A stretch of 64,000 bases of DNA from an uncultured bacterium (GTDB taxonomy: Bacteria > Hydrothermota > Tepidihabitantia > CAYHGV01). The DNA is taken from contig CAYHGV010000001.1 in assembly GCA_964356135.1 (NCBI GenBank), positions 8,179 to 72,178 of the forward strand. Direction: 5' to 3'. Positions 1-22,122 of this stretch are shown in pieces. The notes below the pieces were generated by a model that was not told where the DNA came from, did not search any database, and worked only from the letters and a program-made list of their open reading frames with translations. Each line of letters opens with the position of its first letter. Position 1 is the first letter of the stretch. The position numbers were made by a program, and so were the translations under genes.

Positions 1-68
1 TCCGGCTGTGGACGGTGCATCCGGGGCTGCACTGCCCGCATCGACATCCGAAAGATCATTCAAGCGGT

Positions 69-911
69 ATGATCGACAGACAGAGCAGAGGAGCCGTGAA
101 TCCCTACGAACCGAAGCAGGCGAAACTGCTGACAGTGATTGACGAGACCCCGACGATTAAAACCTTCGGATTAGAGGTTCGGCCGCCGATTGAATTTGAA
201 GCGGGTCAGTTTATTGAACTGACCGTGCCCGGCGTCGGTGAAGCGCCCTTTACCCCTTCATCTTCGCCGTCCGACCGGGATAAACTCGAAGTTACGATCA
301 TGAAGGTCGGCCAGGTTACTTCGAAGTTATTTGAATTAAAACCGGGTGCTTCGTTGGGGATCCGGGGACCGTACGGTAAGCGCTATCCGCTTGAAAAATT
401 CGAGGGCAAAGAGATTCTGATTGTCGGTGGAGGAGTGGGGCTGGCACCGTTACGAGCGCTTTTTTTTGCGTTGATCGCCGAGCCACTGCGGTATAGTAAA
501 ATCGTCGTTCGCTACGGTGCCCGGACGCCGAAGGATATTCTCTTTAAACCGGAGCTGGTCCGGTGGCGAGAACTGGCAGGAGTCGATTTTTTACAGACGG
601 TGGATGTGGCGGATGAGTCCTGGGCGGGAAAGGTGGGAGTGGTGACGACGATTCTCGATGCGGTTCCGATCAAGTCCCTGAACAATAGCGTCGCGGTGGT
701 GTGCGGCCCACCGTTGATGATGAAGTTCGTGACCGAGCGGTTATTAGCGATCGGGTTTCGAGGTTCCAATATTTATTTGTCGATGGAAAAAAACATGTCG
801 TGCGGTGCAGGAAAGTGCGGTCACTGCCGGATGGGAAGTCTGTTTCTCTGTGAAGACGGGCCGGTGGTGACCTGGGATGACGTGAAAGAGATTGAGGACC
901 CGTTCTTATGA
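69..911 (+). CDS. Hydrogenase gamma-subunit-like FAD/NAD(P)-binding oxidoreductase with a C-terminal 2Fe-2S site (HydG/AsrB/PyrK family). The frame is open back to the window edge (ORF track starts at 15), so the true start may lie upstream.
   Basis: Read by eye, it resembles P. furiosus sulfhydrogenase gamma: NPYxP...TFxL near the N-terminus, GIRGPYG, and a C-terminal CGAGKCGHCRMGSLFLCEDGP cysteine cluster. The stop overlaps the first unit of a 14-bp tandem repeat. Confidence 0.7.
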   Translation: MIDRQSRGAVNPYEPKQAKLLTVIDETPTIKTFGLEVRPPIEFEAGQFIELTVPGVGEAPFTPSSSPSDRDKLEVTIMKVGQVTSKLFELKPGASLGIRGPYGKRYPLEKFEGKEILIVGGGVGLAPLRALFFALIAEPLRYSKIVVRYGARTPKDILFKPELVRWRELAGVDFLQTVDVADESWAGKVGVVTTILDAVPIKSLNNSVAVVCGPPLMMKFVTERLLAIGFRGSNIYLSMEKNMSCGAGKCGHCRMGSLFLCEDGPVVTWDDVKEIEDPFL

Positions 912-961
912 AGGTGCCCTTATGAAGGTGCCCTTATGAAGGTGCCCTTATGAAGGTTGCA
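906..961 (+). repeat. 14-bp tandem repeat TTATGAAGGTGCCC: three perfect copies plus one diverged copy. It spans the hydG-like stop codon and the fdhA-like start codon.
   Basis: Direct reading: units at 906-919, 920-933 and 934-947, with a diverged unit at 948-961. Each unit carries an AAGGTG Shine-Dalgarno-like hexamer and an ATG, placed so that the AAGGTG of one unit sits 5 nt upstream of the ATG of the next. Confidence 0.85.
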
Positions 962-2584
962 CCGACGACCTGTCCGTTCTGTCTCTACGGCTGCGAACTG
1001 GGAATCGCCATCGACCAGGGTGCGATCAAAGGGGTTGAGTACCGCAAAGATTCAGAGATAAATCAGGGCCGGCTCTGCGCCCGCGGTAACGGCGCAGCCT
1101 GGCTGTTAGACCATCCCCGGCGGCTGACCGAGCCAATTATTGAAGGACGGAGGACCGATTGGCTGCGGGCGTGGACCGAGATCGAGAAAATTCTCAAAGC
1201 GACCAGGGTGCAGGAGATAGCCGTTACCCTCGATAAAAATCTGACTCAGGAAGAGGCGAGTGTGATTGCAGGATTTGCCCAGGCGTTCGGGATTGAAACC
1301 GTCGGCTCGAGTTATTTAGAACCGGAAGGTTATTTCCAGTATCGGCTGCCAGGGGTCAGATCCGCTCAATTGACTGACATCCGGGAGGCAGACCTTTTTA
1401 TTCTCATCGGCGATGTCCTGAACCAGATGCCGGTGCTGGCAAAGCCGGTGCTCGATGCCCGGTATCGGGAGCGGCAGCACCGGATCGTGGTGATCGATTC
1501 AATTCACACCCGGACCGGTTTTTTTGCAGACCGGTTCATCCGGGTCGAACCCGGCTCCGAGCCGTTGTTGCTGTTAGGGGTTTACGAGCGAGTTCAGGGA
1601 AAGCCCGCGCCGGCGACCGGCGATAAGATTGCCCAGGCATCGGGAGTCCCGATCGAGCAGATCGAAGGACTGTCAGCGATGGTGAATCAAGCCCGGCGGG
1701 TGGTGGTTGCTGCGGGAACGACGCTGGGCAGGGTAGAAATGCCGTTTCTCTTCGCTTTGGCGCCCCAGCTGCTTGCCTCAGTAGCTCCGGGCAAGATTAC
1801 ATTTTTAGCAGCTGGCGAAGCGCGGTGCCTGGTTAGCGGTAAAGGATTCGGGGAGATTATGTCGTTAGTAAAAAACAGAAAGATCAAGGTCCTCTGGAAT
1901 TTTGGCGAATCGTTTCCCTTTGATTATCCCCAGCTGGACCCGATATTGAAAAAATTGGATATGCTGATAACGACCGCAACCTTCATTCCGGGGAAAAAAG
2001 GTGGGGCATTGATTCTACCGGTACCATCCAACCTTGAGAAGACCGGTACGATTCCGACGTTGTGGGGGGAGGGCAGGCTGACCCAGCCGGTGGTGCCGCC
2101 CAGTGGCGTAAAGTCGATCGGCGAGATCCTGAACCAGACCGCTTCCCGGTTGGGCATCGGTTTCAGCCCCCGAGCGACTGAAATGAGCCGGCTGGTTGCG
2201 CCGGACGAGGTCTTGAGGGTTGCGGAGGATTATTTAGATGAACGGTTGAAGCCGAAACGGAGACGAACCTATCCATTTATTCTGGTCGGAGAAAAACCGG
2301 CAATAGAATTTCAGGGATTTTTTGTCGATTCGAAAAATCGGTTGAAGCTGAATCCGGTTGATTGCACCGCTTTAAATCTGAGAACCAGCGAGACGGTAGT
2401 GGTCGATACCGCGGAGGGGACGGAAGAATTCATTGTCGAGCGTTCGCCATCGGTGCCCCGAGCGGTCGTCGCTTGTTCGGTAAACCGGCGAGAGAACCGG
2501 CGGTTATTTGAGCCCGTGATTGACAAGACAACCGGCGATTGTATAATTCCATTCGCCCTTGCTAAGGTATGGAAAAAAATCTGA
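950..2584 (+). CDS. Molybdopterin-oxidoreductase family protein, formate dehydrogenase H (FdhF)-like. It has the N-terminal 4Fe-4S motif but no Cys or Sec at the catalytic position.
   Basis: N-terminal CPFCLYGCEL...C motif (CxxCxxxC...C). The middle domains align to E. coli FdhF by eye (e.g. HRIVVIDSIHTRTG against KIIVCDPRKIETA). There is no Cys and no in-frame TGA between residues 44 and about 290. The protein is 544 aa against about 715 for FdhF. Confidence 0.75.
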   Translation: MKVAPTTCPFCLYGCELGIAIDQGAIKGVEYRKDSEINQGRLCARGNGAAWLLDHPRRLTEPIIEGRRTDWLRAWTEIEKILKATRVQEIAVTLDKNLTQEEASVIAGFAQAFGIETVGSSYLEPEGYFQYRLPGVRSAQLTDIREADLFILIGDVLNQMPVLAKPVLDARYRERQHRIVVIDSIHTRTGFFADRFIRVEPGSEPLLLLGVYERVQGKPAPATGDKIAQASGVPIEQIEGLSAMVNQARRVVVAAGTTLGRVEMPFLFALAPQLLASVAPGKITFLAAGEARCLVSGKGFGEIMSLVKNRKIKVLWNFGESFPFDYPQLDPILKKLDMLITTATFIPGKKGGALILPVPSNLEKTGTIPTLWGEGRLTQPVVPPSGVKSIGEILNQTASRLGIGFSPRATEMSRLVAPDEVLRVAEDYLDERLKPKRRRTYPFILVGEKPAIEFQGFFVDSKNRLKLNPVDCTALNLRTSETVVVDTAEGTEEFIVERSPSVPRAVVACSVNRRENRRLFEPVIDKTTGDCIIPFALAKVWKKI

Positions 2585-3036
2585 TCGTCGATCTCGACTA
2601 CTGCATCGGCTGCCAATCCTGCGAGGCAGCATGTCGGGCTGCGTTTAAAGGTGAGGCGAGAATCCGCTACGGCTGGGTACGGCAGAGCGCATTGATACCT
2701 GCGCCCTGCCGGCACTGCGCAGACCCGCTGTGTGCGAAAGCCTGTCCCGAATCGGCAATGGTAAGAGACGAAACGACCGGTTTCGTCTATCGCCGGAGCT
2801 TTCTCTGTATCGGATGCCATTCTTGTATCTATGCCTGTCCGTTCGGGGTCTTAGAGCCGACGCTGGTGCGGCACGTGGTCATGAAGTGTGACTACTGTAA
2901 AGACCGGCACGAGGGTCCGCGCTGTGCCGCGAGCTGTCCTTCGGGTGCGCTTTCGTTCGTAGCGGCAGAGGAAACTGTCAAGTCACGGGTCGGCGCCCGC
3001 TCTATTTCGCATTCGTCCTTCTGGCGGAGGACCTGA
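2569..3036 (+). CDS. 4Fe-4S ferredoxin-type electron-transfer subunit, like HycB/HyfA/FdhB. It has four CxxCxxCxxxCP-type motifs.
   Basis: The motifs are CIGCQSCEAAC, CRHCADPLCAKACP, CIGCHSCIYACP and CDYCKDRHEGPRCAASCP. The gene overlaps the upstream gene by 16 nt. Confidence 0.8.
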   Translation: MEKNLIVDLDYCIGCQSCEAACRAAFKGEARIRYGWVRQSALIPAPCRHCADPLCAKACPESAMVRDETTGFVYRRSFLCIGCHSCIYACPFGVLEPTLVRHVVMKCDYCKDRHEGPRCAASCPSGALSFVAAEETVKSRVGARSISHSSFWRRT

Positions 3037-3127
3037 TAATGAATCACGGAGGGTCAAGGCGATTGACATGGAGTGACACGGACGAGTGTGCACGGTGGAC
3101 AGTGAACTTTTCATGTGGGGATTCCCG

Positions 3128-4051
3128 ATGGTAGGTTCGGTACTAAAAATACTCTTCTCCTTCCTTATTTTCCCGGGATTTTTATTCGCCGCGATTGTCG
3201 GGTTCTTCTTAACCTGGTTCGACCGGATGGTTTCCGCCCGCATCCAGTGGCGGGTCGGGCCGCCCTGGTTTCAGCCGTTTGCCGATTTTTTCAAGCTGCT
3301 CTTGAAAGAATCGACGATACCGGACGGAGTACCCCGGGTCATTTTTCTCGGTGCACCGATACTCAGTCTTACCGGCATTACGATAGCGGCGGCAATGCTC
3401 GGGTTTATGAATCTCTATCCCCGGAGTTCATTTATCGGGGATCTGGTCGTGGTGGTCTATTTTTTAGCTTTTGTTCCCTTAGGGATAGTTATCGGTGGTT
3501 CAGCTTCCAAGAATCCGTTAGGAGTGGTGGGGGCAATACGGGAGATGAATCTCTATTTCGCCTATGAACTGCCGTTACTGATCTGCGTCGTTCTGGCGAT
3601 AATCAAGACGCACAGCCTCAAAATCGGAGAGATGATTCTCTACCAGCAGGCGCACGGTCCGGTGCTGTATTCAGTATCGGGCGCAATCGCATTCGTTGTT
3701 GTGCTGATAGCGACCCAGGCGAAGCTGGGCTATGCGCCGTTCGATATTCCCGAGGCCGAGCAGGAGATTATGGCCGGACCGTATATTGAGTATTCGGGGG
3801 TGGCGCTGGCGCTGTATAAGCTTACCCGGGCAATCACTTTTTTTGTGATGCCGGTGTTGATGATCACTATTTTCTGGGGCGGCGTGCGCGACCTCTGGGC
3901 AATTCCAAAATTTATTCTCATTGTAGTTCTGGTCATTCTCATAAAAAATACCAATCCTCGACTGCGAATCGACCAGGCACTGAAATTCTTCTGGTTCGGT
4001 TTAGGAACGGCTTCCGCGGTCGGTATGATCCTGGCGTTAACCGGACTATGA
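3128..4051 (+). CDS. Membrane subunit of the NuoH/HycD/MbhM family. The ORF track begins at 3086; the ATG at 3128, which has a GGGGA hexamer upstream, is the more likely start.
   Basis: The protein is polytopic and hydrophobic, with RIQWRVGPPWFQPFADFFKLLLKE, which is the NuoH signature R.GP..G..QP.AD..K. The downstream gene overlaps it by 4 nt. Confidence 0.75.
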   Translation: MVGSVLKILFSFLIFPGFLFAAIVGFFLTWFDRMVSARIQWRVGPPWFQPFADFFKLLLKESTIPDGVPRVIFLGAPILSLTGITIAAAMLGFMNLYPRSSFIGDLVVVVYFLAFVPLGIVIGGSASKNPLGVVGAIREMNLYFAYELPLLICVVLAIIKTHSLKIGEMILYQQAHGPVLYSVSGAIAFVVVLIATQAKLGYAPFDIPEAEQEIMAGPYIEYSGVALALYKLTRAITFFVMPVLMITIFWGGVRDLWAIPKFILIVVLVILIKNTNPRLRIDQALKFFWFGLGTASAVGMILALTGL

Positions 4052-4464
4052 GAGACATCCGACGCTGGGGTTTGAAAAAGTCGCCCTGGGTTTTCCATGT
4101 TTCGGTCAGCTCGTGCAACAACTGCGACATCGAAATTCTCGACGCGCTCACCCCTCGTTTCGACCCGGAACGATTGGGGGTGGTGCTGGTCGGTTCACCC
4201 CGGCATGCGGACGTGCTGTTGGTCACCGGTGTTGTCAATCGGATGTGTGTCGACCGACTGCTGCGGGTTTATACCGAAACGGCAAAACCCTGTCTGGTCG
4301 TTGGGGTTGGAACCTGTGCCTGCGGTATCGGGATTTTCCAGGACGGCTACAATACCGCCGGGCCGTTAGACCGGCATATCCCGGTTGATGTCTACATTCC
4401 GGGCTGTCCCCCAAAACCGGAGGCGATTATTTTAGGGATTGCCAAACTGCTCGCAAAGATATGA
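4048..4464 (+). CDS. [NiFe] hydrogenase small subunit of the NuoB/HycG/MbhJ type, carrying the proximal 4Fe-4S cluster.
   Basis: CNNCDIE...GTCACGIG...CPP(K)P cysteine pattern typical of NuoB-like small subunits; 138 aa. Confidence 0.85.
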   Translation: MRDIRRWGLKKSPWVFHVSVSSCNNCDIEILDALTPRFDPERLGVVLVGSPRHADVLLVTGVVNRMCVDRLLRVYTETAKPCLVVGVGTCACGIGIFQDGYNTAGPLDRHIPVDVYIPGCPPKPEAIILGIAKLLAKI

Positions 4465-4913
4465 TTGTCGAAGAAATCAAACTGCGGTTTCCCGATTTTG
4501 AACTGCATGAGCACGCTGCCCGGCGGCTCTACCTCACCGTTCCCCGGGAACGGCTGGGCGAAGTCGGGCGCTTCCTGTTTCTGGAAAAAGGAGCGCGGCT
4601 CTCGACTGCGACCGGCACCGATACCCGGGCAGGTTTTGAGCTGCTCTACCATTTCTCCTTAGATACCGAGGGGACGTTTGTTTCGGTGCGAACGGTCGTT
4701 CCAAAAGACGATCCGAATGTTGAGTCCCTGGCGAGCTTTATGCCGGCGGCAAACTGGATTGAGCGTGAGATCTTCGACCTCGTCGGCGTGGTTTTTTTGG
4801 GCCATCCGAATCTGAAGCGGCTGCTTTCCGCAGAGGATGTGCCGGAAGACCACCGGCCATTGCGGAGGGATTTTGATGGGAATGACGATAAGATTAAACC
4901 ACCGAGAACATAG
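4461..4913 (+). CDS. NuoC/HycE N-terminal-domain-like subunit (the 30-kDa subunit). Here it is a separate gene rather than fused to the large subunit.
   Basis: NWIEREIFDLVGVVFLGHPNLKRLL matches the NuoC signature ExExxDxxGxxFxGHP. Confidence 0.8.
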   Translation: MIVEEIKLRFPDFELHEHAARRLYLTVPRERLGEVGRFLFLEKGARLSTATGTDTRAGFELLYHFSLDTEGTFVSVRTVVPKDDPNVESLASFMPAANWIEREIFDLVGVVFLGHPNLKRLLSAEDVPEDHRPLRRDFDGNDDKIKPPRT

Positions 4914-5077
4914 AGAAATGGTAATCGAGCAGAGAGAGTCTCCAGGTTATAGGGTAACGGTAACGATGCCCGTCCCGTCAGTCGTTGATGGGCAAGGGTA
5001 TTTACATGCCGTTACCGTAGCCCTGCTCCGAAACGGGCGTCATAACCCTGACCTGGTTATTTATAACTTAAATTCCC

Positions 5078-6268
5078 ATGGAAGTTAGTCGCAGAATCGT
5101 TCCGATCGGACCGTTCCATCCGCTCCAGGAGGAGCCGGAATTTTTCAAGCTGATAGTCGAAGGCGAAAAGGTGGTCGGGCTCGAAATTACTATCGGCTAC
5201 AACCACCGCGGCCATGAGCTGTTATGCCAGAATCGGACCTACGAACAGATTCCCTACGTGGTCGAACGGATCTGCGGGATATGTTCGAACTCCCATCCGT
5301 TGGCGTATGTGCTGGCGGTAGAAGATCTGGCAAAGATTGAGGTGCCGGTCCGTGCCCATTATATCCGAACGGTCATTGATGAGCTCCAGCGTATCCACTC
5401 CCATCTCTTATGGTTGGGTCTGGCCGGACACTTCATCGGCTACAATACGGTCTGGATGTGGTCCTGGCGCTACCGCGAGGATGTGCTCGACATTTTTGAA
5501 CTCATCACCGGTAATCGTCAGAATTATGCGATGAATAAGATCGGTGGTGTGCGCCGGGATATAGTGGAAGAGGATATTCCCAGGATTCATACGATGCTTG
5601 GCGGTCTCGAAGGGAAAATAAAAAGTTTCATCGGGATGGTTCTGGACGACCCGGTTATCCGGGCACGGTTAGAACGGGTTTGCATCCTGACGAAAGAGCA
5701 AGCCCGAGGTTACGGCGTGTTAGGACCGATCGCCCGGGCTTCGGGGATTGCGATTGATGTGCGCCGGGACGACCCCTATGCCGCTTCGGATTGGGTGAAG
5801 TGGGATATGGTGGTTTACAGCGAAGGCGATATTCTGGCGAAGGCAAAGGTCAGGCTGGTCGAGTGTTTGGAGTCAGTGAGAATTGTCAGGCAGTGCCTGG
5901 ACCGGATGGAAGAGGGGCCGATTGAAACGATGGTCACTGAGATCCCGCCGGGCGAAGGTATCGGCCGGGTTGAGGCGCCGCGCGGCGAAGTCTTTCATTA
6001 TGTACGCTCGGACGGTAGCAATATGCCCAGCCGTCATAAGATTCGGGCTCCGAGTTTCATGAATGTTCCTTCCAATGAAGTGGCGGTAGTCGGCTATTCG
6101 ATTGCCGATGCCGCGCTCTGCCTGGCCGCGGTCGACCCCTGCTACTGCTGTACCGAACGGCTGGCGGCATTTGAAAACGGGAACAAGAGATTCAGCTTTC
6201 AGGAGCTGATTAAGCTTTCCTGGGAAAAAACCGAGGAACTTAAAACTAAATTTAGGATATGCAAATAA
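5078..6268 (+). CDS. Group-4 [NiFe] hydrogenase large (catalytic) subunit, HycE/EchE/MbhL-like, with a C-terminal extension of about 35 aa.
   Basis: The N-terminal Ni-binding motif RICGICSNSH is present. The C-terminal motif is DPCYCCTER (DPCxxCxxR). The protein is 396 aa, and the tail after the C-terminal motif implies maturation by a HycI-type protease. Confidence 0.9.
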   Translation: MEVSRRIVPIGPFHPLQEEPEFFKLIVEGEKVVGLEITIGYNHRGHELLCQNRTYEQIPYVVERICGICSNSHPLAYVLAVEDLAKIEVPVRAHYIRTVIDELQRIHSHLLWLGLAGHFIGYNTVWMWSWRYREDVLDIFELITGNRQNYAMNKIGGVRRDIVEEDIPRIHTMLGGLEGKIKSFIGMVLDDPVIRARLERVCILTKEQARGYGVLGPIARASGIAIDVRRDDPYAASDWVKWDMVVYSEGDILAKAKVRLVECLESVRIVRQCLDRMEEGPIETMVTEIPPGEGIGRVEAPRGEVFHYVRSDGSNMPSRHKIRAPSFMNVPSNEVAVVGYSIADAALCLAAVDPCYCCTERLAAFENGNKRFSFQELIKLSWEKTEELKTKFRICK

Positions 6269-6397
6269 TACTAATGACAATGCTACGCGAAGCGTCCGTT
6301 GTTACTCGAAGAGTAGATGCGAGAGCATCACACAGCGAAACGAATGATTCGAATATTACAATATTATTATTCGCTATCATTCGGGTCATTCGCTCAA

Positions 6398-7822
6398 ATG
6401 GATAGACTGCTGGTGCTGCTGATCCTGGTGCCGATTGGCGCCGGGGTGCTGACTCCGCTTTTCGGTAGAATCCATCGGGTCGGCCGGGAAGTATGGGCGC
6501 TCTTGGTGAGCGGTAGCGCGTTCGGACTTTCGATACTGTTGCTGCGCACGGTTTTGATCGGTAAACCGTTATGGGCGTGGCGGCTTCCGGTGATGAGCGT
6601 TCTGCCGGCACCGCTCATGTATATCGACCGGGTGGGCGTATTTTTAGCCGTTCTTTTCAGTTTCGTTTTCTTTTTGACCACGCTCTACTCGACCGGTTAT
6701 CTTAAGGGTTATCCCCACCAGAGCGAGTATTATGGACTGCTCCTGGTTCTGCTGGGCGCGGTCACCGGTATTGTCTTTTCTGCCCATCTTTTGATGCTCT
6801 ATCTTTTTTGGGAACTGGCGACGCTGGGCACCTGGCGGCTGGTTGGATTCTATCGCAACCCCAATGAGATCCGGATTGCGGAAAAGATGTTTCTCTTGAC
6901 TTTTTTCGGGTCGGTTTTGATGCTGTGCGGGTTTGGGGCGTTGTATGTCAAATACCAGACGTTTAACATTTTTGACCTGTCCGGACTGCCGATCGATAGC
7001 TGGGTAGCGTTCTTAATATTAGCCGGAATTTTTGTCAAATCCGCCAGCCTGCCTCTCCATACCTGGCTGGCAGACGCCCATCCCGCCGCACCGTCGCCGA
7101 TGAGCGCGCTACTCTCGGGGATTATCGCCAAGATTGGGTTGGTCGCCTATATCCGAATCTTCATCCAGGGTGTTACGCCCCCTCCTTTTTGGGGCGGGAC
7201 GGTTGCGGCATTGGCAGTTGCCAGCGCAGTCGTGGCAGCGGGCTGTGCGTTGGTCGAAAAAGATTATAAACGGATTCTCGCCTTTTCGACCGTGAGCCAG
7301 TTGGGGTATATCTTTATCGGTTTCAGCCTGGCGACCTACTGGGGGGTGGTGGGCGGGCTGCTCTATCTGGCATCGCATTGCCTGGCAAAAGCCGGGTTGT
7401 TTCTGGCGTTCGGCATTGTCGAGCGGCAAACCCATGAGCGCAATGTCGATCAGCTGGGAGGACTTGTCCATACCTTGCCGGTCACCGGGATTTCGACGTT
7501 TATCCTCGCGTTATCGATAATCGGTATTCCACCGTTGTTTGGATTTTTCAGTAAAGTTGTGGTCGTGATAGCGGCGGCACAAAAGAGCATCATCGTTACC
7601 GCCGGTTTGGTGCTGGTAGCGATTTTCACCCTGCTCTACTTTATTAGAATTTTCAGCAAGGTTTTTTTAGGCCACCCCAAAGGGCGGACGACGGTGCGGG
7701 AGCCGGTGCTCCTGACCAGTGTGGTGGTGGTGCTGGCGGCGGTTTCGCTCGTGTTCGGGCTGGGGATCGGCTATCTGGTCGGTTTCTTTAACCAGGGTCA
7801 GGCGATATGCTCAATGTTCTAA
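6398..7822 (+). CDS. Antiporter-like membrane subunit (NuoN/MrpD/HyfB family). The ORF track begins at 6317; the start at MDRLLVLL (6398) is the more likely one.
   Basis: HTWLADAHPAAPSPMSALLSG motif typical of NuoL/M/N and MrpA/D; polytopic membrane protein. Confidence 0.75.
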   Translation: MDRLLVLLILVPIGAGVLTPLFGRIHRVGREVWALLVSGSAFGLSILLLRTVLIGKPLWAWRLPVMSVLPAPLMYIDRVGVFLAVLFSFVFFLTTLYSTGYLKGYPHQSEYYGLLLVLLGAVTGIVFSAHLLMLYLFWELATLGTWRLVGFYRNPNEIRIAEKMFLLTFFGSVLMLCGFGALYVKYQTFNIFDLSGLPIDSWVAFLILAGIFVKSASLPLHTWLADAHPAAPSPMSALLSGIIAKIGLVAYIRIFIQGVTPPPFWGGTVAALAVASAVVAAGCALVEKDYKRILAFSTVSQLGYIFIGFSLATYWGVVGGLLYLASHCLAKAGLFLAFGIVERQTHERNVDQLGGLVHTLPVTGISTFILALSIIGIPPLFGFFSKVVVVIAAAQKSIIVTAGLVLVAIFTLLYFIRIFSKVFLGHPKGRTTVREPVLLTSVVVVLAAVSLVFGLGIGYLVGFFNQGQAICSMF

Positions 7823-9708
7823 CCTTACCGATTCTGATTCCGACCGCGGCCGCGCTGTTGGGTTTTCTGATCAAGCGGCTGCGGAACGAGTTCGGGTTTG
7901 TCGGCGCTTTATTTACCCTCTACTATGCGGTCCGGCTCTTTTTGGTTTCCCGCTCGGCTACCCTCAGCTACGAGATTGTCCGCATCAAATCCCTCTCCTT
8001 CAGTCTGTTTGTCGATGGGTTCTCGGGTTTGATCATTCTCGCCTGTTCGTTCTTTGGTCTGTTGGTTCTCCTCTATTCATTCCGGTCGATGCGCATCTAT
8101 GCCCGGCTCAAAGGCTATTACGCCTATCTGCTGCTCACCCTTGCCTGCGCCAACGGTGTTAGCCTGGCGCACGATCTTCTGCTGTTACTCTTTTTCTGGG
8201 GGTTCCTCCTGGCACTGCTCTACGGGCTGCTCTCGATCGGCAAGGGTGAAACCGGTGATGCCGCGAATAAGGCGTTTACGGTCATCGGCATTTCCGATTT
8301 TCTTCTGCTCTTTGGCATTGCTCTGCTCGTGGCAAAGACCGGCAAAGCCGATATTGTCCTCGAATCGAAACTGGTGTTCACCGATCCCGTGCTTGTTGCC
8401 AGTTACATTCTGTTAGCCCTCGGGTGTTTCGGTAAAGCCGGGGCATATCCTTTCCATACCTGGATTCCGGAAGCGGCAAAAGTTGCGCCGGCAACAACGA
8501 TGGCGTTCATCCCGGCGAGCCTCGATAAACTGTTGGGGATCTATCTCCTGGCTCGGGTGAGCTACTCGATTTTCGATCTTACCACATCGCTTGCCCTGCG
8601 AATCTTTTTATTGAGCGTCGGTGCGGTCACCATTCTGGCTCCGGTGCTGATGGCGCTGGTGCAGAAGGAAGCGATGCGGCTCTTATCGTTCCATGCAGTT
8701 TCGCAGGTGGGCTACATGATTTTAGGAATCGGCACCGGCACGCCGATCGGTATTGCCGGTGCGATTTTTCATATGCTCAACAATTCGATTTACAAGTGCA
8801 GTTTGTTTTTGACTGTCGGTTCGGTTGAAGACCGGGCCAAGACCACCGACCTGGATAAGCTCGGTGGTCTTGGCCGGCAGATGCCGATTACGCTCTTTTC
8901 TTTTATTATTGCGGCGTTCGCCATCTCCGGGGTTCCTCCCCTCAACGGGTTCTTTTCTAAGTGGATGGTCTATCAGGGGATTTTAGAAACGGCGAAAGAT
9001 GGTAATAAAATTTATCCGATATTTTTAATTGTTGCTCTGTTCGGCAGTGTCCTGACTCTGGCTTCATTTCTCAAGCTGCTTCATTCGCTTTTCTTAGGCG
9101 AGCGGCCGTCCGGGCTGGCACGGGTCCGGGAATCGGGTTTTGTGATGTGGATTGTTACGGTCCTATTGGCGGCGATATGTATCCTCTTTGGCGTTTGGGT
9201 GCGGGTGCCGCTTAACCTGTTCATTTACCCCGCCATCGGATTCATAAAACCCGCGTTTATCGGCTTCTGGTCGCCTTCATTAGCCACCGGCATTATCATT
9301 ATCGGAATTGTGCTCGGGCTCGTCATCTACCTTCTCGGGACGGCATGGAAACCGATGCGCCGTCACGTATTTACCGGTGGCGAGCTGCTCGCACCGGACG
9401 AGGGTCACATTACCGGTCCCCATTTTTATAGTCCGGTAAAGGAACTCTTCGCAAAAAGCTATGAGTTTGGGGAGGGTGGAGCCTTTGACTTTTACAACTA
9501 TTCTACCGGTATCATTCGGGCGGTCAGTATGGTTTTTTCGCGGTTGATTGACCGCGGGTTTGACCGATTCTACGAATTCCTCGCCCGGTTAGGAAATCTC
9601 TTCGGAAGCGCGCTTTCGTTCGTTCATTCCGGAGAATTGCCGACCTATTTAGGCTGGATCTTTTTAGGAATGGCGGTAATTTTGATCGTGCTCATGTTCG
9701 GCGGTTAG
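7807..9708 (+). CDS. MrpA/NuoL-like antiporter subunit with a C-terminal extension.
   Basis: 633 aa, highly hydrophobic, with an HTWIPEAAKVAP...LGGL core. It overlaps the upstream gene by 16 nt. Confidence 0.75.
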   Translation: MLNVLTLPILIPTAAALLGFLIKRLRNEFGFVGALFTLYYAVRLFLVSRSATLSYEIVRIKSLSFSLFVDGFSGLIILACSFFGLLVLLYSFRSMRIYARLKGYYAYLLLTLACANGVSLAHDLLLLLFFWGFLLALLYGLLSIGKGETGDAANKAFTVIGISDFLLLFGIALLVAKTGKADIVLESKLVFTDPVLVASYILLALGCFGKAGAYPFHTWIPEAAKVAPATTMAFIPASLDKLLGIYLLARVSYSIFDLTTSLALRIFLLSVGAVTILAPVLMALVQKEAMRLLSFHAVSQVGYMILGIGTGTPIGIAGAIFHMLNNSIYKCSLFLTVGSVEDRAKTTDLDKLGGLGRQMPITLFSFIIAAFAISGVPPLNGFFSKWMVYQGILETAKDGNKIYPIFLIVALFGSVLTLASFLKLLHSLFLGERPSGLARVRESGFVMWIVTVLLAAICILFGVWVRVPLNLFIYPAIGFIKPAFIGFWSPSLATGIIIIGIVLGLVIYLLGTAWKPMRRHVFTGGELLAPDEGHITGPHFYSPVKELFAKSYEFGEGGAFDFYNYSTGIIRAVSMVFSRLIDRGFDRFYEFLARLGNLFGSALSFVHSGELPTYLGWIFLGMAVILIVLMFGG

Positions 9709-9709
9709 G

Positions 9710-10234
9710 ATGCTGCTCTTTTCGCTCTTTCTGGTTTTTATAATTATTGCCGCGATCGTGGCAATCGAAATCAAAGACCTCCTGGCGGCGACGATTGCAG
9801 TGGGTGCCGTGGGCTTCGGGGTGGCGATTATGTTTATCCTCACCCAGGCTCCGGATCTGGCGATTGTCCAGATTGTCGTCGAGGTTTTAACCGTCATCGT
9901 CTTTGTCGCGGTTGTGCTGCAGACGACCCACGAGGATACGACCGTCGGGATGAATCGAGGAATGATATTCCCCCTCGTTTCCTATCTGGCGTTCGGTTTC
10001 GTTTTTATTACGCTTGTGCTCTATACGTTCAAAGAGCTTCCACGGTTTGGCGAGCCACTGATCAAGGTTGCACAGTTCTACATCGCTGAGGGTCTTGCGA
10101 AAACCGGCGCGGCGAATATCGTTGCGGCGGTGATTCTTGATTTTCGGGGTTATGATACCCTGGGCGAAGCAACGGTGCTGTTCACCGCAGTAATCGGAGT
10201 ACTAACTATATTAAGAAAGGTAGGACGAAAGTGA
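9710..10234 (+). CDS. MrpB/MnhB-related small membrane subunit (N-terminal domain type).
   Basis: A protein of 174 aa with 4-5 transmembrane helices, placed between the MrpA-like gene and the MnhB-domain gene. The assignment rests on position and hydrophobicity. Confidence 0.55.
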   Translation: MLLFSLFLVFIIIAAIVAIEIKDLLAATIAVGAVGFGVAIMFILTQAPDLAIVQIVVEVLTVIVFVAVVLQTTHEDTTVGMNRGMIFPLVSYLAFGFVFITLVLYTFKELPRFGEPLIKVAQFYIAEGLAKTGAANIVAAVILDFRGYDTLGEATVLFTAVIGVLTILRKVGRK

Positions 10235-10268
10235 ACAATCTCCGCGTTCGTCCGCGTCCTTCCTCGCT

Positions 10269-10712
10269 TTGGCAGAAATGAGCGGAATGACCGTGATTGT
10301 TAAAACGATGGCGCGGATTACGAGCGGGCTGATTTTCCTCTTTGGCTGCTATATCGTGCTCCACGGCCACCTGACGCCGGGCGGAGGATTCGCGGGCGGG
10401 GTGATCATTGCTGCGAGTTTTGTTCTTTTGATATTAGCCTTCGGCAGCCGGGAATCGGGCGAGCGGCGTTCGTATACGGTCGCTTCAATTATGGAAAGTG
10501 TCGGCGGAATTCTCTTTTTAGCGATTGCCGTTTTGGGTTTGTTTGTCGGGAGCTGGTTCTTTTTGAATCTGTTGCCCCATGGCACGCCGTTACGCATCTG
10601 GAGTTCGGGGATTATTTTGCCCGCCAATATCGCGATCGGCATCAAGGTCGGCGCAGGCTTGGTTAGTATCTTTCTTGCGTTTGCCGCTACCAAACACGTC
10701 ACGAAGGAGTAG
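10269..10712 (+). CDS. MrpB/MnhB-domain subunit.
   Basis: LHGHLTPGGGFAGG matches the MnhB signature (GH..PGGGFQ.G). Confidence 0.7.
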   Translation: MAEMSGMTVIVKTMARITSGLIFLFGCYIVLHGHLTPGGGFAGGVIIAASFVLLILAFGSRESGERRSYTVASIMESVGGILFLAIAVLGLFVGSWFFLNLLPHGTPLRIWSSGIILPANIAIGIKVGAGLVSIFLAFAATKHVTKE

Positions 10713-10820
10713 CATTGATGAAAACTGAGAACAATCGATGGAGAGGTAAAGAATTCAGTTTACCTCGGTATCTATCTCAGTCTCAATCAATGCTCAATTC
10801 CTTTTTGAGCACGGGATAAG

Positions 10821-11159
10821 ATGCTCTTCTTTGTTGCATGCATTGTGCTGTTTCTGATCGGTCTCTATGCGGTCATAACCAAGAAGAACCTGATCAAGAT
10901 TGCGATCGGGTTCTCGATTATGGAGTATGCGGTCAATCTGCTGTTTGCCCTGATCGGCTTCAAAAAAGGCGCAATCCCTCCGATTATAACCTCGCTCTCC
11001 GCACCGAAGAATTTTGTCGACCCTCTTCCCCAGGCACTGGTCCTGACCGCGATCGTCATCGGTTTGTGCACAACCGCACTGTTGCTTGCGATTGCCCTCC
11101 GGCTCTACCAGCGGTACAAGACATTCGATATCACCGAAATCAAAAAACTACGTGGCTGA
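10821..11159 (+). CDS. MrpC/NuoK-like small membrane subunit.
   Basis: 112 aa with 3 transmembrane helices. The reading is based on position within the Mrp gene order and on NuoK-like hydropathy. Confidence 0.7.
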   Translation: MLFFVACIVLFLIGLYAVITKKNLIKIAIGFSIMEYAVNLLFALIGFKKGAIPPIITSLSAPKNFVDPLPQALVLTAIVIGLCTTALLLAIALRLYQRYKTFDITEIKKLRG

Positions 11160-11326
11160 TAATGGAACCACAGATGCACACAGATAGACACAGATTAAAC
11201 GAAAATGAATAAGGGAAATTCTTACCGATTGACTGTAGATCGAGTACTATTTAACCATTATGGCTCGTGCGGACCGCTTCGGTCCGAGCGAGCCGAACCA
11301 TTTAACCAATTTTTGGACTGTTTTTA

Positions 11327-12823
11327 ATGTCTAATATCTTTCTTCCGCTTTTTATTGCGCTGCCGTTAGCCGGTGCGTTTCTCATTCCGCTCGTAGCCCG
11401 GCTGTGGCATGGGCTGGCCGATATTATCGCCAATCTCATCACCGCCGCCCTGGTCGGGCTCTCGATTTACGCGCTCACGGTCCTCGCCTATCAGCCGATG
11501 GTGGTCTATAAACTCGGCGGCTGGCCGCCGCCGATCGGCATCGTTATGGGTTTTGATGCCCTCTCCGGGCTGATGGTTGTAACGATTGCGGTTATCAGTT
11601 TTGCCGCGAGTCTGTTTTCGATTCGCTATCTCGATTCCTATACCGGGCGCTGGAAGTTCTATACTTTGTTCATGCTGATCATTGCCGGATTGAACGGAGT
11701 CGCCATTACCGGCGATATCTTTAATCTGTTCGTTTTTGTTGAGATTACTTCGGTCGCATCCTATGCCCTGGTTGCATTCGGCACCAGAGACGAGGAGCTC
11801 GAAGCCGGATTTAAGTACATGGTGATCAGTGAGGTTGGCGGTATGACCCTGTTGCTGGCGTTGGCGCTCATCTATGCCAAGGCATCAACCCTGAATATGG
11901 CAGACCTTGCCCGGATAATTAGCCTGCACGGCATGAGCCCGTTCTTCTGGTTTGTGCTTGGATTGTTGGTCATCACGTTCGCGATTAAAGCCGCGTTAGT
12001 GCCGTTCCACTCCTGGCTGCCTGATGCCCACCCCGCCGCACCGACGCCGGTGTCGGCGATTCTCTCCGGGGTTTATATCAAGGTTTTAGGAGTCTATGCC
12101 CTGAGCCGGATTGTTTTCAATGTTTTCGGGCTCCACCGTGCCAATGCTCCGGTCTTCTTCAATCTCCTTTTGATACTCGGGCTGGTTTCAATCGTCGTCG
12201 GGGCATTTCTGGCGTTATCCCAGAAGGATTATAAGCGATTGTTGGCGTATTCGAGCATCAGCCAGGTCGGTTACATTATCGTCGGGTTCGGGATTGGTAA
12301 CTACTGGGGGGTGTTGGGAGCCCTCTTCCATATTCTCGCCCATGCGTTGAACAAAAGCTTGTTGTTTTTGACTTCGGGTTCAGTCGACCGCGCACTGCGA
12401 ACGCGCGACCTGGACAAGATGGGTGGTCTGGAAAAGAAGATGCCCGTAACGGCATGGAGTTTTATTGTCGGTTCGACTTCGCTTGCCGGTTTACCGCCGC
12501 TGGTCGGATTCTTCTCCAAGCTGCTGATCGTGCTCGGAGCACTGGCGGCGAAGATGTATCTGGTGGCGGTGGCGGTGGTTCTGTTGAGTGTCGTCACCCT
12601 CGGCTATTTTCTGAAGATCATCAAACAGGCGTTCTTTGGTAAAGAGGCGACCGAGGGAGCGCACGAAGCGCCACTGGCGATGGCACTGCCGATGATTATG
12701 CTTGCGGTGCTGGCGGTTGCCTGCGGTCTCGGATATTTTTGGCTTACTAAATTCGTAGTCGGTCCAGCCGCCGATGCACTGTTACGGGGAATCGACTATG
12801 CACGACTCATCTTCGGTGGATAA
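11327..12823 (+). CDS. MrpD/NuoN-like antiporter subunit.
   Basis: HSWLPDAHPAAPTPVSAILSG motif; 498 aa, polytopic. Confidence 0.8.
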   Translation: MSNIFLPLFIALPLAGAFLIPLVARLWHGLADIIANLITAALVGLSIYALTVLAYQPMVVYKLGGWPPPIGIVMGFDALSGLMVVTIAVISFAASLFSIRYLDSYTGRWKFYTLFMLIIAGLNGVAITGDIFNLFVFVEITSVASYALVAFGTRDEELEAGFKYMVISEVGGMTLLLALALIYAKASTLNMADLARIISLHGMSPFFWFVLGLLVITFAIKAALVPFHSWLPDAHPAAPTPVSAILSGVYIKVLGVYALSRIVFNVFGLHRANAPVFFNLLLILGLVSIVVGAFLALSQKDYKRLLAYSSISQVGYIIVGFGIGNYWGVLGALFHILAHALNKSLLFLTSGSVDRALRTRDLDKMGGLEKKMPVTAWSFIVGSTSLAGLPPLVGFFSKLLIVLGALAAKMYLVAVAVVLLSVVTLGYFLKIIKQAFFGKEATEGAHEAPLAMALPMIMLAVLAVACGLGYFWLTKFVVGPAADALLRGIDYARLIFGG

Positions 12824-12943
12824 TATGATACCAAATACTGACCGCAGATGGACGCAGATAGACACAGATAAGAATAACACGAAGTGCTTGGTAACCGGGG
12901 GTGGTTTGTTATTTTACCGATTACCATTTAACCATTTTTTAGT

Positions 12944-13426
12944 ATGATTATCGTCTACTTCATCTTCGGCTACGGTCTCTGGCTGCTGCTGACTTGGACG
13001 GTCTACTACCAGTCGCTCATCGCCGGTGTGCTGGTGACCGTTCTCGCGACCGTTGTTTTTGGCAATTACTTCACCGGCAGCCCGAAAAAATTCTTAGACC
13101 CGCGCCGCTATTTCTGGGTGCTGGTTTATATTCCGGTGTTTATCTACTACATGCTCCGGGCAAATCTCGATGTCGCATTCCGGGCGTTGCATCCCCAACG
13201 GCCGATACGTCCCGGGATTGTCAAAATTCGGACCACCCTCAAAACCGATCTGGCAAAGACCTTTTTGGCTAACTCCATCACCCTCACCCCGGGTACGATG
13301 ACGGTCGAGATTGACGGCGAGTATCTCTATATTCATTGGATTTTCGTCGAGACGACCGACATCGAAGAAGCGTCGAAGGTAATTGCCCGACCATTTGAAC
13401 CGTATCTCCGGAGAATATTCGAATGA
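12944..13426 (+). CDS. MrpE/MnhE-like subunit.
   Basis: SITLTPGTMTVEIDGEYLYIHW resembles the MnhE family, and the gene sits in the MrpE position. It overlaps mrpF by 4 nt. Confidence 0.65.
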   Translation: MIIVYFIFGYGLWLLLTWTVYYQSLIAGVLVTVLATVVFGNYFTGSPKKFLDPRRYFWVLVYIPVFIYYMLRANLDVAFRALHPQRPIRPGIVKIRTTLKTDLAKTFLANSITLTPGTMTVEIDGEYLYIHWIFVETTDIEEASKVIARPFEPYLRRIFE

Positions 13427-13677
13427 CCGGTTTAATGGTGGTCTTGGCGGTTGCGGCATTTCTCTGTTTGTACCGGATTTTCCAGGGGCCGACCATTTCC
13501 GACCGGTCAGTCGGAGTCGATATTATGGGGATTATTTTCGTCGGCATTACCGCGCTCACCGCCGTGATCTTTAACCTCTCCTATTTATTGGATTTAGCGA
13601 TTGCCCTGGCGATGCTCAGTTTTATCGGCGTTCTGGCACTCGCAAAATATTTGGAAAAGCGGAATTTAGATGATTAA
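13423..13677 (+). CDS. MrpF/MnhF-like subunit.
   Basis: 84-aa two-helix membrane protein in the MrpF position. Confidence 0.65.
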   Translation: MTGLMVVLAVAAFLCLYRIFQGPTISDRSVGVDIMGIIFVGITALTAVIFNLSYLLDLAIALAMLSFIGVLALAKYLEKRNLDD

Positions 13678-14023
13678 ATTCTTCGGCTGGTTTTTTATCT
13701 GGCTGGGTGTGTTTTTCGACCTCTTGGGCTGTATCGGCTTGGTCCGCTTCCCGGATGTCTATAACCGGCTCCAGGCAGCGACGAAATCCGTAACCCTGGG
13801 GACCTTAGGGATCATGTTCGGGATTTTTCTCCTGCATGGTTTCAGTCCGATGGGAATCAAGGCTCTGATCTGCGGTATGTTTATCCTGTTGACCGCGCCG
13901 GTTTCAGCGCACGCGTTAGCCCGGGGTTCGCTCATCTTCCGGTCGAAGATGTGGAAAGGTTCAACGGTCGATAGGTTCGGTGAAGATAAACTCGGCGGCC
14001 CGCAAATCGAGGATAAGGAATGA
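13670..14023 (+). CDS. MrpG/MnhG-like subunit.
   Basis: A 117-aa protein with LLGCIGLVRFPDVYNRLQAATKS..LG, which resembles the MnhG family. Confidence 0.7.
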   Translation: MIKFFGWFFIWLGVFFDLLGCIGLVRFPDVYNRLQAATKSVTLGTLGIMFGIFLLHGFSPMGIKALICGMFILLTAPVSAHALARGSLIFRSKMWKGSTVDRFGEDKLGGPQIEDKE

Positions 14024-14052
14024 AACCTTTAATTGTAAGATTGAACCACAAA

Positions 14053-14073
14053 TCCGCCAAGATTCATGGCGGA
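14053..14073. promoter_or_regulatory. Palindrome TCCGCCA-N7-TGGCGGA, copy 1. Other copies lie at 14841-14861, 24802-24822 (degenerate), 35155-35175, 44244-44264 and 44316-44336.
   Basis: Read directly: 7-bp perfect inverted arms with an invariant 7-nt spacer length, in six copies, all in non-coding DNA. Confidence 0.6.
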
Positions 14074-14164
14074 CACAAAAAGCACAAAGAAGATAATTAT
14101 TTAGGTGTCAAAGAAATTTTCTTAAACTTTGTGTCCTTTGTATCCTTTGTGGTAAAAATTTCAA

Positions 14165-14773
14165 ATGAAAAAACCTAAACTCCGTGAGTTAGCCGAAGCT
14201 CTGCGGGCGATCTTCACCGGTCCCTATACCCGGAAGTTTCCCAGGGAGCCTTCACCCGCATTCCCCCGCTATCGGGGAATAATCGCCTTTGATAAAGATA
14301 AGTGTCTTGGCTGCGGCGCATGCGTTGAGGTCTGCCCGGCTTTAGCCCGGGAAATGGTCGACGATAAAAAAAAGAAAATCAGGAGGAATATCCACTATCA
14401 GGACCGGTGCGTCTACTGCGGTCAGTGTGTCGCCTACTGCACCAATAAGTATGCCATCGTTCATACGCCGGAATACGATCTGGCAAATCTCGACCGCAGC
14501 CACTACGATAATTCTATCGAATTAGAGCTGGTGATGTGCGAGGTCTGCGGAGGGGTGATAACCACCCGGAATCACCTGCGCTGGATCGCCAACAAGGTCG
14601 GTGAACTGGCGTATGCCAATCCGACGTTGATGTTAATAAAATTGGGCGAGCTGGGTTTAGTCGAGGAAACTGTACCCCGAACCGAACCCGCGCCCTACCG
14701 TTCCGACACCCAGAGATTGCTCTGCCCCCGATGCCGCCGGGAGATTCATCTCACCGAGGTATGGGGGTATTGA
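14165..14773 (+). CDS. 2x[4Fe-4S] ferredoxin subunit (NuoI/HycF/MbhN-like).
   Basis: The motifs are CLGCGACVEVCP and CVYCGQCVAYC, with extra Cys pairs (CEVCGG, CPRCRRE). The protein ends EVWGY*, and the last codons are duplicated at 18598-18630. Confidence 0.75.
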   Translation: MKKPKLRELAEALRAIFTGPYTRKFPREPSPAFPRYRGIIAFDKDKCLGCGACVEVCPALAREMVDDKKKKIRRNIHYQDRCVYCGQCVAYCTNKYAIVHTPEYDLANLDRSHYDNSIELELVMCEVCGGVITTRNHLRWIANKVGELAYANPTLMLIKLGELGLVEETVPRTEPAPYRSDTQRLLCPRCRREIHLTEVWGY

Positions 14774-14861
14774 CGTTTTTTTCCCGAGAGATAAAATAAT
14801 ACCAGCGAACTAACATAGAACTTGAATTCTGACATAACCATCCGCCACGAGGTATGGCGGA

Positions 14862-15045: not shown

Positions 15046-15065
15046 ACTTTAACTACAGGAGGCAG

Positions 15066-16551: not shown

Positions 16552-16595
16552 ATTCGGGTTGTTATATTGAAATTTGTAAATGCGAATTAAAGAAA

Positions 16596-20771: not shown

Positions 20772-20836
20772 AGGGAGCTTAGTAGGTGAGGGTGAAGAGT
20801 AAATGGATAATTTTGTGAATATTGAATTTAATAGGA

Positions 20837-22120: not shown

Positions 22121-22122
22121 TA

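Follow-up and report, generated by a model that had tools for sequence, protein, structure and literature searches.

The 64,000-nucleotide (nt) stretch analysed here (contig CAYHGV010000001.1 of GenBank assembly GCA_964356135.1, positions 8,179 to 72,178 of the forward strand; hereafter the window) comes from an uncultured bacterium and opens with genes for a membrane-bound [NiFe] hydrogenase coupled to a Na+/H+ antiporter. Open reading frame (ORF) listing, translation and Pfam and NCBIfam searches place 17 complete co-oriented genes and the 3′ end of an eighteenth on the + strand of positions 1–14773. The region is a window-truncated copy of a real, intact 18-gene operon: every ORF is intact, the lengths agree with those of orthologues, and start and stop codons overlap at seven junctions. 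By gene order and large-subunit signature, as published, it is a candidate division WOR-3 example of the already described Hun type, the 16-subunit hydrogenase-Na+/H+ antiporter supercomplex named by Glass et al. (bioRxiv 10.1101/536078). The genes, with lengths in amino acids (aa), are as follows.

1–72, +: 3′ end of HunA, HydB/ShyB/AsrA-like Fe-S subunit, truncated at the window edge; frame 1 reads SGCGRCIRGCTARIDIRKIIQAV and then a stop (…CGRCIRGC…)
69–911, +: HunB, HydG/AsrB-like subunit for flavin adenine dinucleotide (FAD), nicotinamide adenine dinucleotide (phosphate) (NAD(P)) and [2Fe-2S], 280 aa; Pfam FAD_binding_6, NAD_binding_1, DHODB_Fe-S_bind
950–2584, +: molybdopterin-fold subunit, 544 aa, one N-terminal [4Fe-4S] site; Molybdop_Fe4S4 strong, Molybdopterin weak
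2569–3036, +: HunC, HycB/CooF-like ferredoxin; Fer4_11 and related families, with HydN, DmsB and formate dehydrogenase (FDH)-beta-like matches
3086–4051, +: HunD, NuoH/MbhM/HycD-like membrane subunit; PF00146, 6.6e-68
4048–4464, +: HunE, NuoB-type hydrogenase small subunit; PF01058, cluster cysteines conserved
4461–4913, +: HunF, NuoC-like subunit; PF00329
5078–6268, +: HunG, group-4 [NiFe] large subunit, 396 aa; PF00346, PF00374
6317–7822, +: antiporter-like subunit 1, HyfD/NuoM-like, 501 aa; PF00361
7807–9708, +: antiporter-like subunit 2, MrpA N-terminal/NuoL/HyfB-like with a C-terminal extension, 633 aa; PF00361
9710–10234, +: fused MbhD+MbhE, equivalent to the MrpA C-terminal domain (covers MrpA residues ~600–790); PF13244, PF20501
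10269–10712, +: MnhB/MrpB-like subunit; PF04039
10821–11159, +: MnhC/MrpC (NuoK-like) subunit; PF00420, MrpC models
11327–12823, +: MrpD-like antiporter subunit 3, 498 aa; PF00361, 2e-74
12944–13426, +: MnhE/MrpE-like subunit; PF01899
13423–13677, +: MnhF/MrpF-like subunit; PF04066
13670–14023, +: MnhG/MrpG-like subunit; PF03334
14165–14773, +: HunP, NuoI/HycF/MbhN-like 2x[4Fe-4S] subunit, last gene of the operon; Fer4 families, HycF, NuoI and HyfH models

An initial annotation, made from the letters of the window, had listed eighteen co-oriented genes here; their types and strand are borne out, with the count now 17 complete genes plus a fragment, and the tight spacing it described holds for most junctions but not for five gaps of 108–167 nt. 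Its HydG-like gene is present, with the start at the ATG at 69, which the HunA stop overlaps as ATGA, and not at the GTG at 15. Likely starts are the ATG at 3128 for HunD, whose orthologue in the locus L001 (introduced below) has 307 aa, and the ATG at 10278 for the MnhB/MrpB-like subunit. Cysteine motifs are conserved in the AsrA-like, HycB-like, NuoI-like and NuoB-like proteins, the 16 cysteines of HunC forming four 4-Cys motifs kept among orthologues. HunP has, beyond its two ferredoxin motifs, a conserved additional C-terminal CxxC...CxxC (C125, C128, C186, C189), which may be a zinc or an additional Fe-S site. The downstream neighbour at 14854 is an unrelated alpha/beta hydrolase gene with its own promoter-like site at 14770–14797, and no hydrogenase maturation genes (hyp, hycI) were found in the window.

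A single scan, with one genome per species, recovered relatives in 442 genomes, which spreads Hun-type operons over many lineages of uncultured anaerobes. The 80 best were retrieved, and gene order was surveyed by tblastn with the window proteins against 82 loci. All 18 genes stand in the same order in 31 of these 82, mostly from WOR-3, and most of the remaining loci are cut by contig ends. Relatives of the large subunit at 69–87% identity are likewise mostly from WOR-3, with a few from Latescibacteria and TA06, and an identical large subunit (P0001) is recorded on a 75.9-kb NCBI contig. The closest retrievable locus, L001 (87% large-subunit identity), has the complete operon and reads as a divergent MarR gene, a 346-aa Fer4_22 protein, an AsrB-like gene and then the gene order of the window. 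The WOR-3 chromosome L084 is closed and has the 18 genes end to end between unrelated flanks, which together with the unrelated flanks of L085 set the operon edges.

Variants of this arrangement are of three sorts: one has 16 genes and only one antiporter-like subunit, another lacks the Mrp genes (L003), and the third lacks the molybdopterin-fold gene as well as the first antiporter-like gene (L081 and L082). Three further truncations, in L033, L044 and L061, were rejected as natural variants, their breaks being 100-N scaffold gaps and hence assembly artefacts. Horizontal acquisition, which the initial annotation had proposed, is not upheld: gene order is conserved among WOR-3, Stahlbacteria and Latescibacterota, in dozens of species genomes, and the G+C of the operon (0.50–0.55) equals that of its flanks. 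With such G+C, and with synteny kept across the lineage, a recent transfer is rejected; an ancient one between phyla is possible. In WOR-3, Hun may be the main energy-converting redox complex.

Neither prior description of such operons had been picked up initially. Hun carriers reported so far are metagenome-assembled genomes (MAGs) of Atribacteria, Firmicutes, Omnitrophica, Elusimicrobia and Bacteroidetes as well as Kosmotoga isolates, and some of the MAGs have a 4Fe-4S molybdopterin-domain gene between HunB and HunC (bioRxiv 10.1101/536078). The window operon shares with them the AsrA/AsrB-like HunAB pair, the Fe-S protein HunC, the NuoH/B/C/D/I homologues and the Mnh-like subunits, all in the same order, together with the CGIC...CYCC large subunit and the optional molybdopterin-domain gene; it differs in having 18 genes instead of 16, with a molybdopterin-fold insert and an extra antiporter-like subunit (6317–7822), in its WOR-3-like host, and in the donor, which we read as NAD(P)H whereas ferredoxin was published. 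The second counterpart is the "enigmatic" group-4 hydrogenase of Saganbacteria RX5A, described with its donor not known (Matheus Carnevali et al. 2019, PMC6349859, Suppl. Note 5). By description it likewise comprises asrA-, asrB- and cooF-like genes, NuoB/C/D/H/I homologues, subunits resembling Mrp antiporters and also a molybdopterin oxidoreductase that has only one 4Fe-4S domain and was not classifiable as an FDH, but it belongs to another phylum and apparently has fewer membrane subunits (two plus two Mrp antiporters are described; PMC6349859). What the present analysis adds is a residue-level case for a dead FDH-like subunit, the argument for NAD(P)H over ferredoxin or formate, a map of operon variants and a two-promoter structure.

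Hydrogenase core, membrane arm and transcription unit

HunG contains both motifs reported for it initially, RICGICSNSH (residues 64–73) and DPCYCCTER (353–361), and carries the CGIC...CYCC signature. The four Ni-Fe cysteines C66, C69, C355 and C358 are invariant across 82–83 orthologues, as are R361 and C357, the extra cysteine of DPCYCC (82 orthologues for the latter). Its best solved relatives are MbhL (6CFW_L, 4e-82) and HycE (7Z0S_E, 2e-73); every complex I NuoD chain ranks lower, and group-3 enzymes match at only 1e-16. The group-4 companion set is complete by Pfam, with a NuoB-type small subunit, NuoC, NuoI and NuoH homologues and antiporter-like subunits, and the earlier group-4 assignment is supported. 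The published HunG with its CGIC-CYCC signature is classed by HydDB as 4g, yet lies distant from other 4g sequences (bioRxiv 10.1101/536078). After Arg361 the large subunit continues for 35 aa, and since the solved MbhL chain stops at the residue aligned with R361, this tail is probably removed by a protease.

A C-terminus probably cleaved past the arginine of DPCxxCxxR is one likeness to the Pyrococcus furiosus Mbh (6CFW, group 4d); another is that homologues of MbhA-H and MbhJ-N are all in the operon, as seen from the Pfam families MNHE, MrpF, PhaG, MbhD, MbhE, MnhB, Oxidored_q2, Proton_antipo_M, Oxidored_q6, Complex1_30kDa, Complex1_49kDa, NADHdh and Fer4, although no MbhI equivalent was identified in it. 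Mbh differs in being a 14-subunit complex with one antiporter-like subunit and direct use of ferredoxin, whereas the window operon encodes three such subunits and four extra soluble ones; the HydB/HydG-like, molybdopterin-fold and HycB-like subunits have no place in Mbh.

All seven MrpA-G functions are encoded, MrpA by two genes (7807–9708 and 9710–10234) and B-G by single genes, and the complete Mrp-type set noted initially is thus present. Because the MrpA function is split in this way, the operon holds three antiporter-like subunits altogether. The second of them, at 7807–9708, matches NuoL and HyfB models over its full length. Charged residues were mapped by alignment with E. coli NuoL, NuoM and NuoN. 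Subunit 1, which is missing from the single-antiporter and L081/L082 variants and is extra to the 16-subunit Hun set, keeps the Glu of transmembrane helix (TM) 5 and the Lys of TM7/8/11/12; in the MrpD-like subunit E139, K221, K252, K343 and K398 are invariant (43 orthologues); in the MrpA-like subunit 2 all Lys are kept, with Gly132 in place of the TM5 Glu and Gly or Asn at this position in 54 of 57 sequences, that of the window included. Extra antiporter-like subunits alongside a full Mrp set also occur in Thermococcus onnurineus Fdh2-Mfh2-Mnh2 (group 4b).

Transcription appears to begin at two points, the second of them within the operon.

2520–2547, +: internal sigma-70 consensus promoter, TTGACA-16-TATAAT, 12/12 matches, lying in the 3′ end of the molybdopterin-fold gene, 21 nt before the HycB-like start

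In 10 of 68 operons, the window's among them, the HycB-like gene is preceded by a perfect consensus, and at least 10 of 12 matches are found in 22 of the 68; this conserved internal promoter is newly described here. The AsrA-like gene has perfect promoters in 16 of 53 operons, which end ~8 nt upstream of its start codon, implying a leaderless mRNA; this suggests that these WOR-3-type bacteria use textbook sigma-70 promoters with leaderless mRNAs. Perfect consensus promoters are confined to these two genes, and since none occurs at the 15 other junctions the Mrp genes are not a separate unit. A terminator scan agrees: its hits fall within coding sequence, and none of the operon's intergenic gaps has a convincing terminator on the + strand. 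The Mrp junctions are free of promoter-like and terminator-like sites alike, in keeping with the co-encoding first noted. From the internal promoter the HycB-to-NuoI core can probably be transcribed without the three input genes. Individual loci with a perfect TTGACA-N16-18-TATAAT upstream of the AsrA-like gene are L009, L017, L027, L030, L031, L034, L042, L043, L045 and L049, and further L053, L055, L059, L060, L061, L066, L076, L077 and L084; neighbouring genes in those loci are also preceded by such promoters.

The molybdopterin-fold subunit

The least conserved gene of the operon (median identity 33.5%, against 70% for the large subunit) encodes the molybdopterin-fold subunit, which the initial annotation had called FdhA-like and taken as part of a formate hydrogenlyase (FHL). 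Its top NCBIfam match is indeed Fdh-alpha, but with 84 bits where the cut-off is 666, and over residues 6–211 only; the protein scores far under every FDH family cut-off, and it also matches NuoG and the cofactor-less QrcB. Across 40 orthologues the [4Fe-4S] ligands C8, C11, C15 and C43 are invariant along with a few other residues, while profile-to-PDB alignments reveal a conserved Y-x-E-P-E in place of the C-A-R-x-(Sec/Cys)-His of solved FDHs. Aligned with E. coli FdhH (NC_000913.3), CCARVUHGPS stands opposite VGSS----YLEPEG, so that the pair Sec/Cys140-His141 is replaced; the PVRGQNNVQG loop with Arg333 is deleted, as are four more segments, and the protein is 171 residues shorter (544 versus 715). 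Names given to its relatives in databases range from "hypothetical" to "selenocysteine-containing dehydrogenase".

In these respects the subunit, to judge from its residues, is not a formate dehydrogenase. Were it nonetheless to oxidise formate and feed the hydrogenase via HycB, as in E. coli FHL-1 and Thermococcus Fdh-Mfh-Mnh, one would point to the gene order FdhA-like, HycB-like, hydrogenase and Mrp, which parallels that of FHL operons, to the top-ranked Fdh-alpha match and to a structural similarity to FdhH considered below. Yet the active-site motif lacks Sec, Cys and His and the R333 loop family-wide; the gene is absent from canonical Hun and from L081 and L082, which are otherwise syntenic and where AsrA/AsrB directly precede HycB; no formate/nitrite transporter domain was found by Pfam among the 17 genes; and two independent papers, one of them PMC6349859, were unable to place such sequences among FDHs. 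We consider a true FHL barely credible, and the initial reading is dropped. Likeness to E. coli FHL-1 (7Z0S, group 4a) persists in the wiring, from an FdhH-like through a HycB-like, a NuoI-like and a NuoB-like subunit to the Ni-Fe site, and in the four-cluster HycB-type ferredoxin; the differences from FHLs are the missing Sec/Cys140, His141 and Arg333, the added NAD(P)H-type flavoprotein pair and the lack of a formate transporter gene.

Structure modelling of this family used database proteins, and the AlphaFold2 model has a predicted local distance difference test (pLDDT) score of 92, keeps the four-domain fold of enzymes with molybdenum bis(pyranopterin guanine dinucleotide) (Mo-bisPGD) and reaches TMq ~0.8 against FdhH (0.80), Nap and other FDHs at 14–17% identity, with 0.73 against NuoG. 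The only long single-stretch matches to solved structures are 7t2r_A, chain A of a bifurcating NiFe hydrogenase, and residues 687–1154 of 9bov_A, the Fdh/NuoG-like domain of NfnA. The former we take to be a NuoG-like chain. In the latter the pterin site is incomplete and pterin density is absent (PMC11829005). The subunit is probably a NuoG-like electron-transfer connector, a catalytically dead FDH relic presumably without cofactor, which would resemble complex I NuoG and the NfnA of NfnABC (9BOV) in combining a molybdopterin fold devoid of catalytic residues with one N-terminal Fe-S cluster, and differ from them in being a free-standing protein of 544 aa instead of a domain of a larger subunit.

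Two observations tell against a dead connector, namely the retention of the full four-domain fold at TMq ~0.8 to real FDHs and the invariance of the polar residues E124, D183, E204 and E363, and some cofactor or ligand could still be bound. The same observations bear on a new catalytic site, at which another substrate (e.g. sulfur or an oxyanion) would be turned over with a non-Cys metal ligand and coupled to H2: the fold is modelled with high confidence, E124-P125 is invariant and Y122 nearly so at the metal-ligand position, further polar residues do not vary, and AsrA/HydB relatives are tied to sulfite and sulfur reduction. However, overall conservation is as low as stated above, large deletions surround the substrate funnel, the gene is dispensable in related operons, and the closest long matches are Fdh/NuoG-like domains, of which NfnA, the one checked, is without pterin. 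Such a site strikes us as very unlikely, if somewhat less so than formate oxidation.

The distinction matters for annotation: metabolic reconstructions routinely label this gene "formate dehydrogenase" and the complex "FHL" or "Mbh", and names from hidden Markov models (HMMs) such as "anaerobic selenocysteine-containing dehydrogenase" and "formate hydrogenlyase subunit 5" mislead. A dead FdhH-like subunit would also offer a concrete model for the origin of complex I NuoG.

Electron donor and direction of the reaction

The 23 residues of HunA in the window agree at 20 positions with the C-terminal end of L001's 346-aa Fer4_22 protein, whose best NCBIfam matches are sulfhydrogenase beta ShyB/HydB and AsrA, at scores below the cut-offs (ShyB 143 versus 690, AsrA 96 versus 323). 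The off-window partner that the initial annotation had postulated for the HydG-like gene therefore exists, but is of the HydB/ShyB/AsrA-like Fer4_22 type and not GltD-like; with the gene order shared with L001, the HydG-like gene itself is a member of this operon and not of an unrelated one upstream. HunB matches AsrB, hydrogenase gamma and HydG, all under their equivalog cut-offs (AsrB 214 versus 289, HydG 190 versus 650); among 63 orthologues, conservation of its GGGVGLAP, APF-SS and C-x4-C-x2-C...C motifs is 95% or higher, and its median identity to orthologues is 61%. The variable parts of the operon are the molybdopterin-fold gene and the membrane arm; AsrA and AsrB are retained in every variant. 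An FAD + NAD(P) + [2Fe-2S] subunit beside a Fer4_22 subunit is the arrangement of HydB/HydG, of ShyB/ShyC (group 3b) and of AsrA/AsrB; here, however, the pair is tied to a membrane-bound group-4 and not a soluble group-3 hydrogenase, and no AsrC accompanies it. The simplest reading is that HunA and HunB would form an NAD(P)H entry point wired via Fe-S clusters to the Ni-Fe site. Electron bifurcation is rejected as a reading, the sole flavoprotein being of the PyrK/NfnA/HydG type. Flavoproteins of this type in known systems are not the bifurcating site.

The reading to which we lean, with slightly better than even confidence, is that of a Hun-type complex for NAD(P)H-linked, ion-coupled, reversible H2 production via the connector subunit. 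HunB would bind NAD(P)H, and electrons would pass from its [2Fe-2S] cluster to the Fe-S clusters of the HydB/AsrA-like subunit, then to the single [4Fe-4S] cluster of the molybdopterin-fold subunit, acting as a connector like the C-terminal domain of NuoG in complex I, and on through the four HycB-like clusters, the NuoI-like and the NuoB-like subunit, to reduce protons to H2 at the Ni-Fe site. With potentials of −320 mV for NAD(P)H and −414 mV for H+/H2, H2 formation from NAD(P)H costs +18 kJ/mol under standard conditions and is exergonic only at very low H2. Since the couple lies this near equilibrium, the membrane arm most likely makes the reaction reversible, with the ion gradient setting its direction: an H+/Na+ gradient would push H2 release, or energy would be stored at low H2 or during H2 oxidation. 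The second, internal promoter would allow the HycB-to-NuoI core to be made without the three genes of the input module.

Several considerations weigh against this NAD(P)H-linked scheme. Our literature search gave no experimental work on any Hun complex, and those who described it proposed ferredoxin, not NAD(P)H, as donor (bioRxiv 10.1101/536078). The sequence does not distinguish NADH from NADPH, three or four ion-translocating units look like a large number for a reaction with so small a free energy, the internal promoter points to a core that can work without the NAD(P)H module, and binding of that module to the membrane complex is suggested by synteny alone.

Some of these points favour a ferredoxin-driven Hun, in which ferredoxin would deliver electrons to HunA/HunB/HunC or directly to the HycB- or NuoI-like subunit, pumping would proceed as in the Pyrococcus Mbh, and the AsrB-like protein would be a relay or side entry. 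Beyond being the published proposal, ferredoxin would make H2 formation exergonic enough for several ion-translocating units and so suit the large membrane arm, the internal promoter would yield a core resembling Mbh plus a polyferredoxin, and MbhL is the closest solved large subunit. On the other hand, Mbh takes ferredoxin without HydB/HydG-like subunits, the NAD(P)-binding domain of the AsrB-like protein and its motif are strongly conserved, its relatives HydG, ShyC, AsrB and PyrK are pyridine-nucleotide enzymes, and AsrA and AsrB are kept even where the Mrp genes or the molybdopterin-fold gene are lacking. We hold ferredoxin to be an unlikely donor, though one to be taken seriously.

The same enzyme might instead take up H2, reducing NAD(P)+ with ion export as a complex-I-like primary pump. 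This direction is exergonic under standard conditions by textbook potentials, the charged residues of the antiporter-like subunits are kept, and an Nfn/NuoEFG-like cluster 15 kb downstream could redistribute reducing power. Yet characterised group-4 enzymes evolve H2 in the HydDB scheme, WOR-3 organisms are inferred to be fermenters, and direction is not readable from sequence; we rate uptake as the normal role a good deal lower than a ferredoxin donor.

If NAD(P)H-linked H2 production holds, reconstructions of these organisms change to one in which NADH is re-oxidised to H2 with coupling to an ion gradient and without formate cycling. Tentatively, and with rather less than even confidence, we further propose that the Hun type is an NAD(P)H-coupled, ion-translocating group-4 class outside the HydDB scheme, in which the WOR-3 lineage kept FdhH only as a cofactor-less Fe-S connector from an FHL-like ancestor and a pyridine-nucleotide flavoprotein module was acquired. 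Should connector and flavoprotein both be as read here, the complex, its Ni-Fe site still active, would mirror in a present-day organism the proposed transition from FHL/Mbh-like enzymes to complex I, with its NuoG relic and NADH module.

Spacers, repeats and surroundings

Two further features lie between genes of the operon.

905–957, +: tandem array CTTATGAAGGTGCC, 14 bp x3.8, perfect (100% matches in Tandem Repeats Finder), spanning the HunB stop and the next start
4914–5077, +: 164-nt structured spacer between the NuoC-like and large-subunit genes, minimum free energy −57.6 kcal/mol

Because of the array, a single ATGA overlap becomes a series of three 5-codon mini-ORFs in which each shares ATGA with the next. 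The array is not present in the closest relative, L001; it could be a slippage-prone junction affecting translational coupling or an assembly artefact. The 164-nt spacer has neither a second copy within the window nor an Rfam match, and Rfam gave no match anywhere in 1–17000, structured spacers included. Strongly folding sequence occupies the gaps at 4914–5077, 10713–10820, 11160–11326, 12824–12943, 14024–14164 and 14774–15066, which also hold short 9-/10-mer repeats (CACAGAT, CTTTGTGTC). Spacer elements are not multi-copy in the window save for a 25-nt CACAGAT-type repeat found in two gaps (11171 and 12845) and a 40-nt element common to the two gaps flanking the NuoI-like gene (14052 and 14840). 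Conservation of the 108-nt MnhB-MnhC spacer in L001 and L002 amounts to 92% identity. The structured or repeat elements of the five gaps are lacking in related genomes, L084 with its abutting genes among them. Between the MnhG-like and NuoI-like genes, L001 (19005–19490) and L002 (9412–9852) have a gene of the PDDEXK_3 nuclease family, at the position of which the window has a 141-nt structured spacer.

Further downstream, a second redox cluster at 29675–36607 (+) encodes NuoE/HoxE-like (158 aa), NuoF-like (603 aa) and NuoG-like (723 aa) proteins, the last with another short molybdopterin-fold domain, followed by NfnA-like (274 aa) and NfnB/GltD-like (479 aa) proteins, both over their NCBIfam cut-offs. 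The cluster resembles an NAD(P)H-ferredoxin module related to Bfu/NfnABC and is relevant to the supply of reducing power for the hydrogenase. Between the two clusters, 18800–23800 is a low-G+C island (0.41 versus ~0.52) with genes for an HNH endonuclease, an N6/N4 DNA methylase and an MjaI-type restriction endonuclease, likely a mobile restriction-modification cassette. On the − strand, two Por_Secre_tail (type IX sorting) proteins flank a 1066-aa LVIVD-repeat protein (44474–45328, 45761–48958 and 49406–50515), and the Por_Secre_tail proteins are consistent with a host of the FCB superphylum (WOR-3).

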